DNA of 4,957 nt from Dictyostelium discoideum (Eukaryota). The notes beneath the pieces are model-generated. The model ran no database searches, had not been told where the DNA came from, and worked only from the letters and a program-made list of their open reading frames with translations. The position numbers and the translations under genes are program-made. Shown piece by piece: positions 1 through 4,957 of this stretch (positions are counted from its first letter, which is position 1; each line of letters starts with the position of its first letter). The stretch is taken from NCBI GenBank assembly GCA_000004695.1, contig CH709151.1, positions 1-4,957 of the forward strand, written 5' to 3'.

Positions 1-408
1 GCGACGTTCACTTGGAAGTTAGATGGAAAGTTGAATACTTTATTCAATTCGGATATCTCATCTTTCTTGAGGATACATTCTTCTTCGACGAGTAAACCTT
101 GATTGTTTACCATATGTTTGTACTGACCAAGTAAAGTATCGGATAATTGATAATCGGTTGGAACATCGACATTGTTACTTGATTCATCATCACTTTGTTC
201 ATTCTCGGTGTCAGAGTTATCATGAGAAGGTTGGTTATGTGAATTGGTATTAGATGAGAACATAGGTTCTTTCATGAATCTTGTAAAGGCTAAAGAAAGG
301 TTGTTGATTTGATCCTCCATTGATTTCATTCTTAAATCAAAGGATTCAGCGCTATTAGAGGCAGAGGTACTACTCGAGGTATAATTATTATTAACAGGGG
401 TAGACATA
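1..408 (-). CDS. DIRS-1-type retrotransposon ORF1 (putative GAG-like protein), N-terminal 136 codons of copy A; partial, runs off window start
   Basis: The reverse complement of 1..408 translates uninterrupted as MSTPVNNNYTSSSTSASNSAESFDLRMKSMEDQINNLSLAFTRFMKEPMFSSNTNSHNQPSHDNSDTENEQSDDESSNNVDVPTDYQLSDTLLGQYKHMVNNQGLLVEEECILKKDEISELNKVFNFPSNFQVNVA. This is near-identical to the N-terminus of the intact 335-aa ORF at 3223..4230. Differences are a 3-bp indel and a few substitutions clustered in the first 10 codons and around codons 58-59. The ATG is at 408..406 on the minus strand. Confidence 0.8.
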
Positions 409-862
409 TTTTATTGTTGATATCTAAAATTATAATGGGAGAAAAATAATAATATTAAAAATTAATAAAGAGAAATAATTATTTGTATAAAATTTGTGTG
501 TGTGTGTATCTTAAATATATATAGGAGGAATTCCCAAATAAAATAAATCAAATTGTTTTAAGTTTTTAGTGCCACTATTTATACCGTTTTTATTTTCTTA
601 AAAATTTCGCAAAACTCAAAAAAATAAGGGTTTTCGACCCTTCACAACTTTGTGCATTGTGTCGGGTTCGGAATTTTTCAGTTTTTCGACCTTGCGGTAA
701 TGATCCCGTCATTGTGCCGGTTCGAAATTTTTTACTTTTCTTTCGAAAATTTTTTATTCTTCGAATGTTCTAGAACATTCTAAAAAATTATCTTAAATAT
801 TGGGAAATTCAAATAAATAAATGTTATTCATAATATATATATATATATATGATAATATAAAT
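409..862 (-). repeat. Left inverted-terminal-repeat/5' leader region of DIRS-1 copy A
   Basis: Non-coding AT-rich leader between the element terminus and the ORF1 ATG. It contains GAAnnTTC heat-shock arrays, a (TG)6-7 tract at 495..507, a TATA-like tatttatac (reverse complement) at ~571..583, and an (AT)n run at 828..848. It is mirrored in 2775..3222. Confidence 0.7.
757..780. promoter_or_regulatory. Heat-shock element: perfect alternating TTC/GAA array (ttcTTCGAAtgTTCtaGAAcaTTC) in the copy A leader
   Basis: The sequence shows at least four contiguous inverted nGAAn units with 2-bp spacing, the canonical HSE architecture. DIRS-1 is known to be heat-shock inducible from its ITR. Further TTCGAA / TTCnnGAA units lie at 721..727 and 743..748. 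Confidence 0.6.
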
Positions 863-1054
863 GATTGAAAGGAACTCTCTATCACCTATGCTGTACCTCT
901 TTTGAGTGTCAGTAAGTTTTCTACTGTGGAACCAAATGACTTTGAATTTATCACCTTGAATTTGATATAATACACCTGATAATGCTTTATCACTAACATC
1001 ACAATACAAGTGAAAACTACCCTTTTCAGAAGTTCCGTTTAAAAAATGTTGCAT
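863..1054 (-). pseudogene. Fragment of an LTR-retroelement-type (Ty3/gypsy, DIRS or BEL-like) RNase H domain; truncated at both ends
   Basis: The minus-strand ORF 824..1054 reads MQHFLNGTSEKGSFHLYCDVSDKALSGVLYQIQGDKFKVIWFHSRKLTDTQKRYSIGDREFLSI. It carries the canonical RNase H motifs of retroviral/LTR-type Pol proteins: (Y/F)-x-D-A/V-S-D-x-x-x-G-x-V-L-x-Q, then h-x-(F/Y)-x-S-R-K-L-x-x-x-E/Q-x-x-Y-S-x-x-(E/D)-(K/R)-E-x-L-x-I. The trailing IIYIIIYIYIYYE is readthrough into the (AT)n of the DIRS terminus. A stop lies 11 codons upstream of the Met, inside the tRNA-like sequence, so this is an orphan internal fragment. Confidence 0.55.
1041..1046 (-). terminator. Oligo(T)6 RNA polymerase III terminator immediately 3' of the tRNA-like unit
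   Basis: aaaaaa at 1041..1046 on the plus strand gives a T6 run on the minus strand, one nucleotide after the predicted discriminator base. Confidence 0.45.
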
Positions 1055-1119
1055 ATGGGAATCGAACCCGTGACCTCTTACATTCTAAGCTATCTATCTA
1101 CCATATGAGCTAAATAAGC
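1047..1119 (-). tRNA. tRNA-like Pol III unit (probable degenerate tRNA gene or pseudogene; anticodon not assignable)
   Basis: The minus strand reads GCTTATTTAGCTCATATGGTAGATAGATAGCTTAGAATGTAAGAGGTCACGGGTTCGATTCCCATATGCAACA. Residues 8-19 form a good A box (TAGCTCAtaTGG versus TRGCnnAGTGG). Residues 52-62 form a perfect B box (GGTTCGATTCC). An AGGTC variable-loop signature is present, the T-arm pairs ACGGG with CCCAT (4 of 5 pairs), and the overall length is a canonical 73 nt. TTTTTT follows directly. However, the 5' acceptor half (GCTTATT) cannot pair with the 3' half (ATGCAAC), no 5-bp anticodon stem forms, and (TAGA)3 slippage sits in the D-arm. Confidence 0.4.
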
Positions 1120-1167
1120 TTTGATTATTTTTCATTATTAATAGCTGAAATATTAATGTAAAAAAAG

Positions 1168-1234
1168 TGAGTAAGAAAAAAAACATCAACAACAACAACA
1201 TTTTTCATATAAAAAAAAGACTTAAAAATAAAAT
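1168..1234 (+). repeat. Direct repeat copy 1 (tgAGTAAGAAAAAAAACATCAACAACAACAACATTTTTCATATAAAAAAAAGACTTAAAAAT); putative leader (A-module-like) repeat of a TRE5-type element
   Basis: About 60 bp is near-identical to 1345..1431. It starts 49-51 bp upstream of the 5' end (1119) of the tRNA-like unit. Confidence 0.7.
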
Positions 1235-1300
1235 AAAATACACAAAGAGTAAATCATTGTACTTCTTTATTTTATTGTAATTTATTTTTTCTTTTTTTTT

Positions 1301-1325
1301 GAAAATTTTGCGAAGCAAAATTTTC
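1301..1325. repeat. Perfect 11-bp stem / 3-nt loop hairpin (gaaaattttgc gaa gcaaaattttc) between the two direct repeats
   Basis: Exact reverse-complement arms are read directly from the sequence. Confidence 0.5.
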
Positions 1326-1344
1326 AAAAAAAAGGAAAAAATAA

Positions 1345-1431
1345 TCAGTAAGAAAAAAAACATCAACAACAACAACATTTTTTATTTGATTATTTCATTT
1401 TTCATATAAAAAAAAGACTTGAAAAAATTAA
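1345..1431 (+). repeat. Direct repeat copy 2, with a ~20-bp internal insertion/duplication (ttatttgattatttcattt)
   Basis: Same sequence as 1168..1234, 177 bp further on. With the insertion, the repeat period is ~178-199 bp. Confidence 0.7.
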
Positions 1432-1613
1432 ATCTCTATACGTATCTAGTAATACAATAGTAATAGTTGCAAATCAGGATGGACAGGAGTTCACACCGAC
1501 AGCATTCAAGTAGTTAGGGATGCTAGTAATTCATTCAAACAAAAATAAAAAATTCCACTATTATTAGTATTACATCAAAATTTCCAGTTGATCACAAAGA
1601 ATATCTCACAACA

Positions 1614-2378
1614 ATGTCCACTGAGTTAAAAAATAAATTCATCAAATGTGAACCAGGAATCAACCATTCTACCTTTACCTTTATCGGAGTAAACACTGAA
1701 TGGGAACCAGAATCTAAAATAAAAGCACTTAACGACTTCACTGTTATAAATATCACTAAATGGAAAATTTTAAAATATAAAGAATCTATGGCCAAAGAAG
1801 AAAAAACCAATGAAAAACAAACATCCCAATCAACACAACAAACACATCAAACTCAACCTAATCAACATACTGAACAAGTTCAAATAATCCAAAATAATAT
1901 AAAAAATTTAACCGAACAAGAGCTAGCTGAATTAATTTTCAACAACCCACAAGAGGCTGAACAAGAAAAAGAAATCATTAAGGAGTTCCAACAACAAAAA
2001 ATTCAAAACCAAAACAAACAAGAAACAAATAATAGTGACAATACATCTTTCACCTCTCCACCCAAAGATAAAGATGAACCATCACTCAATTTAAGTTCTC
2101 AATTCGAAGTTAGCATTTCTACTCAAGAAATAAACACTATGCTTAATACTGACTTTATCTTTGATGACTCTTCACCAATACCAAATAAATTATTAGAGCT
2201 GATTTCACCTGAACCAATTGTTTTTAGCATCAGAGAATTGGATTCTCCAACTAAAGATAACATACTAAATGAACTACTATATCAACCAGAACAATCAATT
2301 TATGTTCCTCCTCCTCCTCCCTCCTCCCCCTCCACCCCAATTAAACAAACCAAGCAGACTAACAAAAATAAGTGGTAG
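1614..2378 (+). CDS. Hypothetical N/Q/P-rich protein, probably ORF1 of the TRE5-like element; terminates prematurely relative to a +1-frame continuation (frameshift in a CCT/poly-Pro tract)
   Basis: A 254-aa ORF with amoeba-style codon usage. It has a structured N-terminus (MSTELKNKFIKCEPGINHSTFTFIGVNTEWEPESKIKALNDFTVINITKWKILKY) followed by Q/N/T-rich low complexity and a PPPPPSSPSTP tract. A stop occurs 40 nt after the cctcctcctcctccctcctccccctccacccc run at 2306..2337. Confidence 0.55.
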   Translation: MSTELKNKFIKCEPGINHSTFTFIGVNTEWEPESKIKALNDFTVINITKWKILKYKESMAKEEKTNEKQTSQSTQQTHQTQPNQHTEQVQIIQNNIKNLTEQELAELIFNNPQEAEQEKEIIKEFQQQKIQNQNKQETNNSDNTSFTSPPKDKDEPSLNLSSQFEVSISTQEINTMLNTDFIFDDSSPIPNKLLELISPEPIVFSIRELDSPTKDNILNELLYQPEQSIYVPPPPPSSPSTPIKQTKQTNKNKW

Positions 2379-2583
2379 ACCAAAATTCAACATTAAACAA
2401 AAAAACATTAAAACGATCGAAGAAAATATAGAGGAACACCTCAAAGATTCTTTAAATAACTCATCAGAAACAATATCAACAAAGAGAAAATACCAGGAGG
2501 AGCCAAATCAAGAGAATGACCTCGAACAAATATCCACAATTATGAACAACAATTTACAAAAACTTATCAATCTCACTAACTAA
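2269..2583 (+). CDS. Probable C-terminal continuation of the same ORF1 in the +1 frame (real coding likely only downstream of the poly-Pro tract, ~2340..2583); the N-terminal MNYYINQNNQFMFLLLL part is out-of-frame overlap
   Basis: Past the proline tract the +1 frame stays open and reads LNKPSRLTKISGRPKFNIKQKNIKTIEENIEEHLKDSLNNSSETISTKRKYQEEPNQENDLEQISTIMNNNLQKLINLTN. It ends exactly at the TAATG overlap with the endonuclease-like ORF start, which argues it is genuine coding sequence displaced by a 1-nt indel. Confidence 0.4.
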   Translation: MNYYINQNNQFMFLLLLPPPPPPQLNKPSRLTKISGRPKFNIKQKNIKTIEENIEEHLKDSLNNSSETISTKRKYQEEPNQENDLEQISTIMNNNLQKLINLTN

Positions 2584-2699
2584 TGAACACAATTAAGATA
2601 GCAATCTGGAACGCCCAAGGACACAGCAAAGAAAAATGCACCTTTAAAGCCAATTTAAAGCAAATTCAATTTAAATTTGCTTTAAATTGGCTTTAAATT
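2583..2699 (+). pseudogene. Truncated 5' remnant of a non-LTR ORF2 (endonuclease-domain N-terminal motif); about 20 meaningful codons, then the frame runs into hairpin repeats
   Basis: It translates as MNTIKIAIWNAQGHSKEKCTFKANLKQIQFKFALNWL*. The I-A-I-W-N-x-x-G segment matches the conserved first motif of the exonuclease-endonuclease-phosphatase domain. From ~2640 the sequence is a palindromic minisatellite, so the domain is deleted. Confidence 0.35.
2643..2697. repeat. Perfect 24-bp inverted repeat (tttaaagccaatttaaagcaaatt / aatttgctttaaattggctttaaa) with a 7-nt loop; built from tandem tttaaagc units
   Basis: Arms 2643..2666 and 2674..2697 are exact reverse complements, counted base by base. 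The loop is caattta at 2667..2673. Confidence 0.8.
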
Positions 2700-2733
2700 T
2701 GCTTTTTAAAAAGGTGATTTTAAAGATATTTTT

Positions 2734-2766
2734 AAGGTCGTTTAAAATTACATTAAAAATGACCTT
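2734..2766. repeat. Second hairpin (aaggtcgttt ... aaatgacctt): 10-bp stem with one G-T mismatch, 13-nt loop
   Basis: Read from the sequence. It lies 36 bp after the first hairpin and 8 bp before the DIRS copy B terminus. Confidence 0.5.
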
Positions 2767-2855
2767 TTAAATTTATTTATATTATCATATATATATATAT
2801 ATTATGAATAACATTTATTTATTTGAATTTCCCAAATATTTAAGATAATTTTTTA

Positions 2856-2879
2856 GAATGTTCTAGAACATTCGAAGAA
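2856..2879. promoter_or_regulatory. Heat-shock element array (GAAtgTTCtaGAAcaTTCGAAGAA) in the copy B leader
   Basis: Alternating GAA/TTC units at 2-bp spacing. This is the counterpart of 757..780. Confidence 0.6.
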
Positions 2880-3048
2880 TAAAAAATTTTCGAAAGAAAA
2901 GTAAAAATTTCGAACCGGCACAATGACGCGATAATTGCGCAAGGTCGAAAAACTGAAAAATTCCGAACCGACACTATGCACAAATTTGTGAAGGGTCGAA
3001 AACTCTTATTTTTTTGAGTTTTGCGAAATTTTTAAGAAAATAAAAACG

Positions 3049-3056
3049 TATAAATA
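3049..3056 (+). promoter_or_regulatory. TATA box (tataaata) ~170 bp upstream of the ORF1 ATG
   Basis: A canonical TATAAATA lies ~170 bp downstream of the HSE array in a slightly GC-richer context (cgtataaatagtggcac). The inverted counterpart is at ~571..583. Confidence 0.4.
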
Positions 3057-3222
3057 GTGGCACTAAAAACTAAAACAATTTGATTTATTTTATTTGGGAA
3101 TTCCTCCTATATATATTTAAGATACACACACACACAAATTTTATACAAATAATTATTTCTCTTTATTAATTTTTATTATTATTTTTTTCTCATATTATAA
3201 TTTTAGATATCAACAATAAAAT

Positions 3223-4230
3223 ATGTCTACCACTGTTAATAATAACGAAGCCTCTAGTAGTAGTACCTCTGCCTCTAATAGCGCTGAATCCTTTGATTTA
3301 AGAATGAAATCAATGGAAGATCAAATCAACAACCTTTCCTTAGCCTTTACAAGATTCATGAAAGAACCTATGTTCTCTTCTAATACCAATTCAAGTAGCC
3401 AACCTTCTCATGATAACTCTGACACCGAGAATGAACAAAGTGAAGATGAATCAAGTAACAATGTCGATGTTCCAACCGATTATCAATTATCCGATACCTT
3501 ACTTGGTCAGTACAAACATATGGTAAACAATCAAGGTTTACTCGTCGAAGAAGAATGTATCCTCAAGAAAGATGAGATATCCGAATTGAATAAAGTATTC
3601 AACTTTCCATCTAACTTCCAAGTGAATGTCGCTCCATTCGGTACACCTGAAGGTATTACTGTATCATCCAACGTCAAGAACAATGATACTGACTTGTTGA
3701 TTGTCGAAAAGCGAATCAACGATAGCTTGAAACCTTTGCTTCTCATGTCAAGTATGTTATCATCTGATAGCTCTAATGTCGATGTAGAACTTATTAGTTA
3801 CTTAACTCAGAGTGCAATCGTCTTAGCCGTTAATGCTCAAGCATCGCTTAGTCGTGTCCGTCGTAACAACATCGCTAAAGAAATCTATGGTTCTGAAGTA
3901 CTCTTACCAATTAAGATCAAGGATACACCAAAGATGTTTGATGAAACTGAAACTGAACGTGTAAGAAAGCTAGCCAAGTCAATCAGAAAGAACAACGAAG
4001 CTAAACAATCATTGTTAAAATTGAATTATCATTCCAAGTCCAATGTCAAGAAATCAGTTAACTCAAGTGGTAATAACACTACAGGAAACAGTAGTAATAG
4101 TAAATCCAGTAGTGGGAGTAATGGCCGATCTAACAACTTCAATGGATCACCAAGTAATGTTGCATCAGGTAGCAACAATACCAAGTCTGCCAACGGTACC
4201 AACAACCGTTTTCAGAAGAACAAGAAGTAA
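3223..4230 (+). CDS. DIRS-1-type ORF1 (putative GAG-like protein), complete, 335 aa
   Basis: An intact ORF that begins directly after the leader. It is S/N-rich at both ends with a unique central region. The minus-strand ORF at window positions 1..408 reproduces its N-terminus. Confidence 0.85.
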   Translation: MSTTVNNNEASSSSTSASNSAESFDLRMKSMEDQINNLSLAFTRFMKEPMFSSNTNSSSQPSHDNSDTENEQSEDESSNNVDVPTDYQLSDTLLGQYKHMVNNQGLLVEEECILKKDEISELNKVFNFPSNFQVNVAPFGTPEGITVSSNVKNNDTDLLIVEKRINDSLKPLLLMSSMLSSDSSNVDVELISYLTQSAIVLAVNAQASLSRVRRNNIAKEIYGSEVLLPIKIKDTPKMFDETETERVRKLAKSIRKNNEAKQSLLKLNYHSKSNVKKSVNSSGNNTTGNSSNSKSSSGSNGRSNNFNGSPSNVASGSNNTKSANGTNNRFQKNKK

Positions 4231-4957
4231 ACTTACCAGTAGGTGGACGTCTGTTCCACCACAAACAAGTTTGGAAAGAATTGGGTCTTCCAAACTTTTG
4301 TCAAGAGTTCGTAAATGGATTAAAAATCCATCTGCTTCCAAATTTCAAGCCGATGCTAAACCCAATTCCGATTTCAATTCCGGAGGGTCCGAAATCAGAT
4401 TGCATCACAAAGGAAGTACAAGACTTGTTATTAGACGATGCCATCGAACAAGTACTTCCAAACCGTTATTCAAAGCGCGTTTTTTACTCCAACGTGTTTA
4501 CGGTTCCAAAACCTGGAACGAATCTACATCGTCCAGTTCTAGATTTAAAAAGGTTAAACACTTACATCAACAACCAATCATTCAAGATGGAAGGAATCAA
4601 GAATCTACCATCAATGGTCAAACAAGGTTATTACATGGTAAAACTCGATATCAAGAAAGCCTACCTCCACGTATTAGTAGATCCACAATACAGAGACTTA
4701 TTCCGCTTCGTGTGGAAAGGTTCGCACTACCGTTGGAAAACAATGCCGTTCGGGCTATCGACAGCTCCTCGTATCTTTACAATGCTGTTAAGACCTGTAC
4801 TTCGAATGTTGAGAGATATCAAGGTATCCGTCATCGCTTACTTGGACGATCTATTAATCGTAGGTTCAACAAAAGAAGAATGTTTATCCAACTTCAAAAA
4901 GACAATGGAATTACTTGTCAAACTAGGTTTCAAGTTAAACCTAGAAAAGAGTGTTCT
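4173..4957 (+). CDS. DIRS-1-type ORF2 N-terminal part: reverse transcriptase (open in frame 3 from 4173; first in-frame ATG at 4353); partial at window end
   Basis: The frame-3 translation contains VFTVPKPGTNLHRPVLDLKRLN, YYMVKLDIKKAYLHV, KTMPFGLSTAPRIFT and VIAYLDDLLIVG. These are RT motifs 1/2, A, B and C (YLDD). The open frame overlaps the ORF1 stop by 57 nt. It is missing from the supplied ORF track because it has no stop inside the window. Confidence 0.8.

Follow-up and report, generated by a model that had tools for sequence, protein, structure and literature searches.

Can a tRNA gene that has lost its cloverleaf still serve as a landing site for a retrotransposon that recognizes RNA polymerase III (Pol III) promoters? 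This question is raised by a short tRNA-like unit in an entire 4957-bp unplaced contig of Dictyostelium discoideum AX4 (CH709151.1), referred to as the window here, which is a transposon nest. The unit lies on the minus strand at 1119 to 1047. An earlier note made from the letters alone had described it as a tRNA-like unit with intact Pol III boxes and no foldable acceptor or anticodon stem, which could be a pseudogene still nucleating Pol III complexes, a chimera of two tRNA halves or a tRNA-derived element. In our analysis, the unit is most probably a decayed relic of a nuclear D. discoideum tRNA gene that belongs to a small, segmentally duplicated family, kept the Pol III promoter architecture and served as a landing site for a TRE5-type retrotransposon. 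The family sits in DIRS-1/Skipper-rich, centromere-type repeat DNA. Below, L-numbered loci are sequences fetched for comparison, and the coordinates of all features in the window are listed in Table 1.

On the minus strand, the unit reads GCTTATTTAGCTCATATGGTAGATAGATAGCTTAGAATGTAAGAGGTCACGGGTTCGATTCCCATATGCAACA and is followed directly by TTTTTT at 1046 to 1041, in agreement with the 73-nt length and T6 terminator described previously. It aligns with a canonical class-I tRNA with zero indels. In this layout, the acceptor strand GCTTATT is followed by TA, the D-stem strand GCTC, the D-loop ATATGGTA, GATA and G26; the middle consists of the anticodon stem ATAGC, the loop TTAGAAT, GTAAG and the variable loop AGGTC; and the 3' part consists of the T-arm ACGGG TTCGATT CCCAT, then ATGCAAC and A73. 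The +1 G is kept, and all the tRNA invariants are present in this register (U8, A14, G18, G19, U33, R37, G53 T54 T55 C56, A58, and C61). Cloverleaf pairing amounts to 12 of 21 pairs (acceptor 3/7, D 2/4, anticodon 3/5, and T 4/5), while D. discoideum tRNA-Lys and tRNA-Glu, which were used as controls, form 21/21 pairs each. Outside the T-stem, 8 of 16 pairs are formed, which is at chance level (P = 0.28). The acceptor strands GCTTATT and ATGCAAC pair at three of seven positions, and the T-stem mismatch maps to C50.A64; both defects had been recognized in the earlier note. The minimum free energy (MFE) of −12.5 kcal/mol is not better than that of shuffled sequences (z = +0.15; z = −2.8 for tRNA-Lys). 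The hairpin CTTA/GAATG/TAAG, which had been described as the only anticodon hairpin that forms, is present in the MFE fold; the indel-free layout instead gives a 7-nt loop, TTAGAAT, closed by 3/5 pairs. The GC content of the unit is 40% versus 51-62% in real D. discoideum tRNA genes.

As anticipated, no covariance model recovered a tRNA fold. The unit was not called in an Rfam search at the gathering threshold, and the best score within the tRNA clan was 10 bits (a T-arm match to tmRNA) compared to a gathering score of 29, while the tRNA model scored 72.6 bits on D. discoideum tRNA-Lys as a positive control. ARAGORN at default settings called no tRNA. With thresholds relaxed to 80%, the unit was drawn as a poor "Ser(aga)" cloverleaf, and with introns allowed and thresholds lowered to 20%, ARAGORN again gave only a "Ser(aga)" fold of poor quality, in which the acceptor was shifted and paired at 5/7 positions. 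Because these relaxed runs with introns allowed gave no register better than the indel-free 73-nt layout, a missed intron or mis-set boundaries were rejected. The metazoan-mitochondrial tRNA models of ARAGORN, the sole organellar mode run, gave nothing, and the flanks of the family are nuclear in type, with a T-run, an ex-B box and TRE elements. These data support that the unit would be unable to give a functional tRNA, as the acceptor, D and anticodon stems are lost; any 73-nt transcript would lack a tRNA fold and presumably be degraded.

The DNA nevertheless keeps what reads as a type-2 Pol III promoter layout, i.e., the +1 G, an A-box-like motif at +8, a B box and the T6 run. The unit matches in full GTCnnnnGTTCRAnYC, the published extended consensus of the D. 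discoideum B box (PMC3159450), and this is the one match observed in the window versus 0.02 expected. The A box, TAGCTCATATG, fits the permissive motif TNNNNNANNNG, but T15 and A16 depart from the stringent D. discoideum motif TRRYNNARYNG. Thus, the description of both boxes as intact applies to the B box, while the A box is near-consensus. The spacing between the boxes is canonical, as previously stated: position 19 is the last of the A box and position 52 the first of the GGTTCGA core of the B box, inside the published range of 30-60 bp (PMC5391098).

To compare the unit with related sequences, loci were fetched via the gypsy fragment of the window and a DIRS open reading frame (ORF) 1, yielding ~235 kb of Dictyostelium DNA that is mostly repeat-rich. 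Two paralogs were found, both in other D. discoideum assemblies. The unit at L016:20809-20881 lies in a flank-to-spacer block with 94.6% identity over 148 bp to window positions 1020-1166 and has 4/73 differences (T8A, C11A, A36T, and C63G), while L004:20425-20497 has 77.6% identity over 165 bp, with 14/73 differences in the unit. GCTTATT...TAGATAGATAGC is common to all three copies, as are the mismatch C50.A64 and a 3' strand that is not complementary. The paralogs form 12/21 (L016) and 11/21 (L004) cloverleaf pairs, and the "anticodon" reads AGA in the window, AGT in L016 and ATT in L004. The majority-rule ancestor of the three is identical to the unit in the window except for T36, which gives the loop TTAGTAT. 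Because the same stems are broken in all three copies, the cloverleaf was broken before the copies separated. The segment TAGATAGATAGC had been read as (TAGA)3 slippage in the D-arm. This reading does not stand, since the segment extends beyond the D-arm into the anticodon stem, adds no length to the 73-nt layout and is common to the three paralogs, arguing that it was inherited and did not arise by slippage at this locus. No intact family member was found in the ~235 kb of mostly repeat-rich Dictyostelium loci, and a metagenome scan for the 5' half of the unit gave no match.

The paralogs also share their surroundings. All three copies have at least 47 nt of 5' flank and a 21-nt 3' spacer in common, and in L016 and L004 the T-run and spacer, as is typical for tRNA genes of D. 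discoideum, are followed by an ex-B module, AGGTC(G/A)CGGGTTCGATTCCC..ATAAAACA, and then by the end of a TRE3-like element. Across L004, L016 and L011, the modules align as AGGTC(A/G)CGGGTTCGATTCCC..ATAAAACATT. The shared flanks, ex-B module and TRE3-like end form a pattern of segmental duplication and not that of a mobile short interspersed nuclear element (SINE); the suggestion of a tRNA-derived element is not supported. L011:13725-13851 (minus strand) contains two tandem ex-B-type modules, AGGTCACGGGTTCAATTCCCACA(T/C)AAAACATTT, spaced by the spacer of the family, with no tRNA 5' part before them and a TRE3-like end after them; the tail of these modules after the B box also occurs in the ex-B boxes of unrelated tRNA genes (L005, L006, and L007). 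Two further decayed units are present in L005, a repeat-rich contig of D. cf. discoideum. One, at 2634-2706 (plus strand), is a more distant unit with an Ala-type T-arm, AAGGGATCGA; the other, at 2515-2587 (minus strand), resembles tRNA-Cys(GCA) and has one inserted nt in its anticodon loop. The two are arranged head-to-head ~45 bp apart, and ARAGORN called neither.

L016 represents an empty site for the TRE5-type element. It lacks the element, and the stretch homologous to the window sets in precisely at position 1166, placing the TRE5 junction at 1166/1167, i.e., 47 nt upstream of the +1 G, the element having its 5' end toward the unit. This distance falls in the window of ~37-54 bp upstream of +1 described in the literature, in which the 5' end faces the gene. 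Specifically, TRE5-A integrates ~50 bp upstream, and its 5' end points to that of the tRNA gene (PMC3159450). It requires a functional B box, while an A box makes targeting far more efficient, and it also integrates at non-tRNA A/B-box loci 47 bp upstream of the +1 G (PMC5391098). Similarly, TRE5-type elements are located head-to-head with tRNA-Lys(UUU) in L006 and tRNA-Glu(UUC) in L007, with gaps of 42-46 nt.

As TRE5-A-specific primers from the literature had no match to the element in the window, we refer to it as TRE5-type only. Its ORF1 spans 1614-2583 with one frameshift, and the product of 1614-2378 is DDB_G0294178 of D. discoideum AX4. The frameshift lies within a CCT/C-rich run at 2290-2345 (cctcctcctcctccctcctccccctccacccc), where either genuine slippage or an error in sequencing could have produced it. 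From its start at 2583, ORF2 runs for ~38 nt and is then fused at ~2620 to a C-module beginning with CACAGCAAAGAAAA. This junction is repeated in the Logan contigs L001-L003 from independent runs (99.5% over 1391-2650), and exact-protein look-ups of the ORFs in the window returned only the window contig and short Logan contigs. The TRE5 in L006 has the same C-module start where its ORF2 ends, and L011 has it in separate copies. Within the C-module, positions 2633-2707 form a near-perfect hairpin with 37-nt arms that are 89% complementary and 1 nt apart; a stem-loop of the C-module is reported to be essential for TRE5-A retrotransposition (PMC3159450). At the other end, the 5' module is duplicated (1155-1208 and 1332-1385, 89% identity, 177-nt spacing), and a 55-nt inverted repeat (1257-1311 and 1315-1369) lies between the two copies.

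L016 has every structural defect of the unit but no TRE5. In the simplest history, therefore, the unit was already broken when the element integrated beside it, and insertion at such a unit suggests that TFIIIC and TFIIIB were assembled there at that time. In this scenario, the common ancestor of the copies would already have been without acceptor, D and anticodon stems; TFIIIC on the B and A boxes of the unit would have placed TFIIIB upstream; and, by way of this complex, the TRE5-type element would then have inserted 47 nt upstream of +1, its 5' end toward the unit. The ORF1 protein of TRE5-A contacts the TFIIIB subunit TBP. Later rearrangements may have removed the downstream ex-B box of the unit, where the gypsy fragment now begins at 1021/1022, and DIRS-1 copies may then have come to flank the block. 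The hallmarks of a tRNA gene relic that we found for the family are colinearity with a tRNA, the T-run, the ex-B module in the paralogs, the TRE5 47 nt upstream, and the TRE3-like end after the ex-B module in the paralogs. Regarding the suggestion that the pseudogene still nucleates Pol III complexes, we infer that TFIIIC/TFIIIB bound when TRE5 inserted, and this part is favored indirectly by the position of TRE5 beside an already broken unit; the present-day part is a prediction from the sequence.

For the parent isotype, the anticodon arm was compared with the sequences in a published primer table for 33 D. discoideum tRNA families. In register, 19/24 positions of the unit match Ala(AGC) and 16/24 match Thr(AGU), the latter count rising to 17/24 in the inferred ancestor, and the remaining families match at no more than 15/24 at any offset. 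Based on these primer-table sequences, the anticodon arm appears closest to tRNA-Ala(AGC), followed by tRNA-Thr(AGU). Exact-pattern scans of genome, viral and metagenome collections for a full D. discoideum tRNA-Ala gave nothing, and scans of the same collections for tRNA-Thr gave only a non-Dictyostelium gene. The T-arm of the unit, ACGGGTTCGA, differs from the Ala type AAGGGATCGA, and the T-arm together with the 3' tail resembles the ex-B modules of the family more than the T-arm of tRNA-Ala.

Several observations weigh against a tRNA gene relic that kept its promoter and attracted TRE5. The A box deviates from the stringent motif at two positions, and A-box or B-box consensus positions are lost in two of the three copies. 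At preset positions, the boxes were not less variable among the copies than the remaining positions (P = 0.22 and 0.57), and these comparisons provide no evidence of selection keeping the promoter boxes. The differences between the unit and L004 are clustered (2 in 47 nt versus 12 in 26 nt, Fisher 3e-5), but this split was chosen post hoc and the low-difference stretch reaches past the boxes; because the tests at preset positions were non-significant, we make no claim of constraint on the boxes. The experiments on TRE5-A apply to the element in the window by analogy. Moreover, the junction between the unit and TRE5 is supported by one short unplaced AX4 contig, the independent Logan contigs covering 1391-2650. 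Finally, at the shared positions 30-48, Ala and Thr score 15 and 14, respectively, for the unit and tie at 15/19 for the majority-rule ancestor. On the other side, the copy in the window is alone among the three in satisfying both the permissive A-box and the B-box consensus, an anecdotal fit to the insertion history.

The origin of the 3' third bears on how the unit decayed. Possibly, although we would not favor it on the present data, the unit is a recombinant in which the 5' two-thirds derive from an Ala(AGC)- or Thr(AGU)-like gene, while the sequence from the variable loop/B box onward derives from an ex-B module or another tRNA gene, joined by unequal recombination or gene conversion between B-box sequences. 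Such an origin would refine the explanation as a relic and not oppose it, and it would account at once for the lack of pairing between the 3' and 5' strands. The 3' part, AGGTCACGGGTTCGATTCCCATATGCAACATTTTTT, aligns with the ex-B modules of L004, L016 and L011, the tail after the B box included, and L011 has two such modules in tandem without a tRNA 5' part. Also, D. discoideum Ala tRNAs have AGGTAAAGGGATC where the unit has AGGTCACGGGTTC, and the changes A48C, A50C and A54T are contrary to AT-biased decay. However, the ex-B modules of the family may equally be duplicates of the 3' end of the unit, the T-arm of tRNA-Thr(AGU) may match that of the unit, and the D and anticodon stems are broken too, for which a swap of the 3' part gives no account.

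A different history, in which TRE5 inserted by an intact, working tRNA gene and the breakage arose later and spread among the paralogs via gene conversion, would make the position of TRE5 uninformative on Pol III factors at the broken unit. Repeat clusters of this kind recombine often, and the clustered differences between the unit and L004 could be conversion tracts. Yet, L016 differs at only four of 73 positions and shares its flanks to within one base of the junction, without TRE5, and a conversion tract must then span the whole unit and both flanks and still end at the junction; the fetched loci of ~235 kb, mostly repeat-rich, contain no intact family member. We, therefore, regard late breakage as improbable. 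Spread by retroposition as a tRNA-derived, SINE-like mobile element would fit the occurrence of several copies with an internal Pol III promoter and a T-run, but only three copies are present in ~235 kb; a 5' flank of 47 nt or more and the 3' spacer are common to all of them, and two also have the ex-B module and the adjacent TRE3-like end in common. A tail, a target-site duplication and a tRNA-unrelated body are all lacking; this makes a SINE-like element very unlikely. Finally, the kept invariant loop nucleotides, U33/A37 and terminator might point to a non-canonical tRNA that is functional or to a structured Pol III RNA of another kind. This is scarcely credible for a fold that is not better than shuffles, in a family without compensatory changes among paralogs, with the "anticodons" AGA, AGT and ATT, and with T8, C11 or G18 lost in paralogs.

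Table 1. Features of the 4957-bp window and their coordinates
Feature	Position	Strand	Remark
DIRS-1-type element, left end (terminal repeat and ORF1 start)	1..862	-	
Ty3/gypsy (Skipper/DGLT-type) internal fragment, reverse transcriptase (RT)-RNase H	863..1021	-	
Conserved 3' spacer AAACGGAACTTCTGAAAAGGG	1020..1040	-	Severed at 1021/1022 here; followed by the ex-B-box module in paralogs
T6 run, Pol III terminator-type signal right after position 73	1041..1046	-	
tRNA-like relic, 73 nt, indel-free versus class-I tRNA, 12/21 cloverleaf pairs	1047..1119	-	
Extended B box GTCACGGGTTCGATTC, full match to the D. discoideum consensus GTCnnnnGTTCRAnYC	1059..1074	-	At +46..61
Anticodon-loop equivalent TTAGAAT, U33 and A37 kept, "anticodon" AGA	1082..1088	-	
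TAGATAGATAGC	1089..1100	-	D-loop end, D-stem 3' strand (GATA), G26, anticodon-stem 5' strand (ATAGC)
A-box-like segment TAGCTCATATGG (tRNA positions 8-19), +1 G seven nt upstream	1101..1112	-	
Native 5' flank, 47 nt, kept in L016 and L004, ends at the TRE5 junction	1120..1166	-	
TRE5-type non-LTR (long terminal repeat) retrotransposon, head-to-head with the relic, internally deleted	1167..2774	+	
Second DIRS-1-type left end: terminal repeat, ORF1 (3223-4230), RT start	2775..4957	+	Inverted versus 1-862

The relic and its TRE5 are embedded in fragments of other elements. The gypsy fragment, which has matches to Pfam PF17919 and PF17917 and 97.6% identity to L011:17628-17792, ends its homology at 1021/1022 and occupies the place of the downstream ex-B box carried by the paralogs. 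A canonical Skipper-2 insertion 8-23 bp downstream (PMC5006619) was considered and rejected because the junction lies within the RNase H coding region and not at an LTR end. The two DIRS-1 left ends (1-862 and 2775-3632) face each other over a 1.9-kb central block, one next to the gypsy fragment and one next to the TRE5-type element at its 3' end, from which it follows that the original tRNA locus has lost its outer flank on both sides. The DIRS-type product encoded in the window is DDB_G0294180 of D. discoideum AX4. Two half motifs resembling a B box, GGGTTCGGAATTTTT and CCGGTTCGAAATTTTTT, occur in the DIRS-1 terminal repeat at 660-678 and 712-731; they are mirrored at ~2900-2970 and fail the consensus GTTCRAnYC. 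An ORF of 76 aa at 824-1054 (minus strand) with its ATG inside the relic continues across the spacer and the RNase H fragment of gypsy and reaches the DIRS terminal repeat; we rejected it as a fusion artefact and not a gene.

Both parts of this arrangement have precedents. In the centromeric DIRS clusters of D. discoideum, four tRNA genes were found across centromeres 1-3, and three of them carried a pseudogene flag (Glöckner & Heidel 2009, PMC2665215). Like the relic described here, these are tRNA-derived sequences among DIRS-1, Skipper and DDT elements; unlike it, they were detected by tRNAscan, whereas the relic is too decayed for ARAGORN (default) or Rfam. The relic also differs in having a TRE5-type element at the canonical distance, while TREs are almost absent from D. 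discoideum centromeres and the single TRE by DIRS had no tRNA gene beside it (PMC2665215). A/B-box loci without tRNA similarity are targets of TRE5-A (Spaller et al. 2017, PMC5391098). At these loci, the +1 G is located seven nt before the A box and the B box is 30-60 bp off, transcripts end at a T5/T6 stretch, and TRE5-A inserts ~47 bp upstream in a tRNA-like orientation. They match the stringent A-box motif and have no other tRNA similarity, whereas the relic is tRNA-colinear throughout and has a permissive A box only, and its integration is natural, old and by a TRE5-type element. With the ordinary D. discoideum tRNA genes in L006 and L007, the relic shares the head-to-head TRE5 at 42-47 nt and the T-run terminator; an ex-B box ~25-30 nt downstream is found at ordinary tRNA genes and at the paralogs of the relic. 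Ordinary tRNA genes, however, have 21/21 pairs, 72.6 bits and 51-62% GC, compared to 12/21 pairs, at most 10 bits and 40% for the relic. Yeast ETC (extra TFIIIC) sites are likewise B-box DNA and not working tRNA genes, and are bound by TFIIIC without TFIIIB and Pol III (as cited in PMC5391098). The TRE5 insertion argues that TFIIIB was present at the relic, which would thus behave like a tRNA gene promoter and not like an ETC site.

While tRNA pseudogenes in DIRS clusters and A/B-box targets of TRE5-A are already published, the relic combines both. It represents a natural, datable case in which a TRE5-type element would have chosen its site from Pol III promoter architecture alone, beside a former tRNA gene; knowledge of such site choice has so far come mainly from engineered assays and from the rDNA element. 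Otherwise, the relic is a pseudogene of the ordinary kind among the remains of transposons. Relics of this type escape standard tRNA finders, and statements that a TRE has no tRNA target in repeat-rich regions consequently need a more sensitive check. In fission yeast, tRNA genes and TFIIIC sites act as boundary or organizing sites at centromeres. More speculatively, and at long odds in our judgment, relic copies with an A box and a B box might be tRNA-less TFIIIC/TFIIIB platforms in the DIRS-1 centromeric clusters, providing entry points for the rare TREs and possibly chromatin boundary or organizing sites. If so, the TRE beside DIRS reported without a tRNA target (PMC2665215) may have a target that is hidden from tRNA finders, and the significance of such relics would rise if occupancy showed them to be active TFIIIC/TFIIIB platforms in centromeric repeats.

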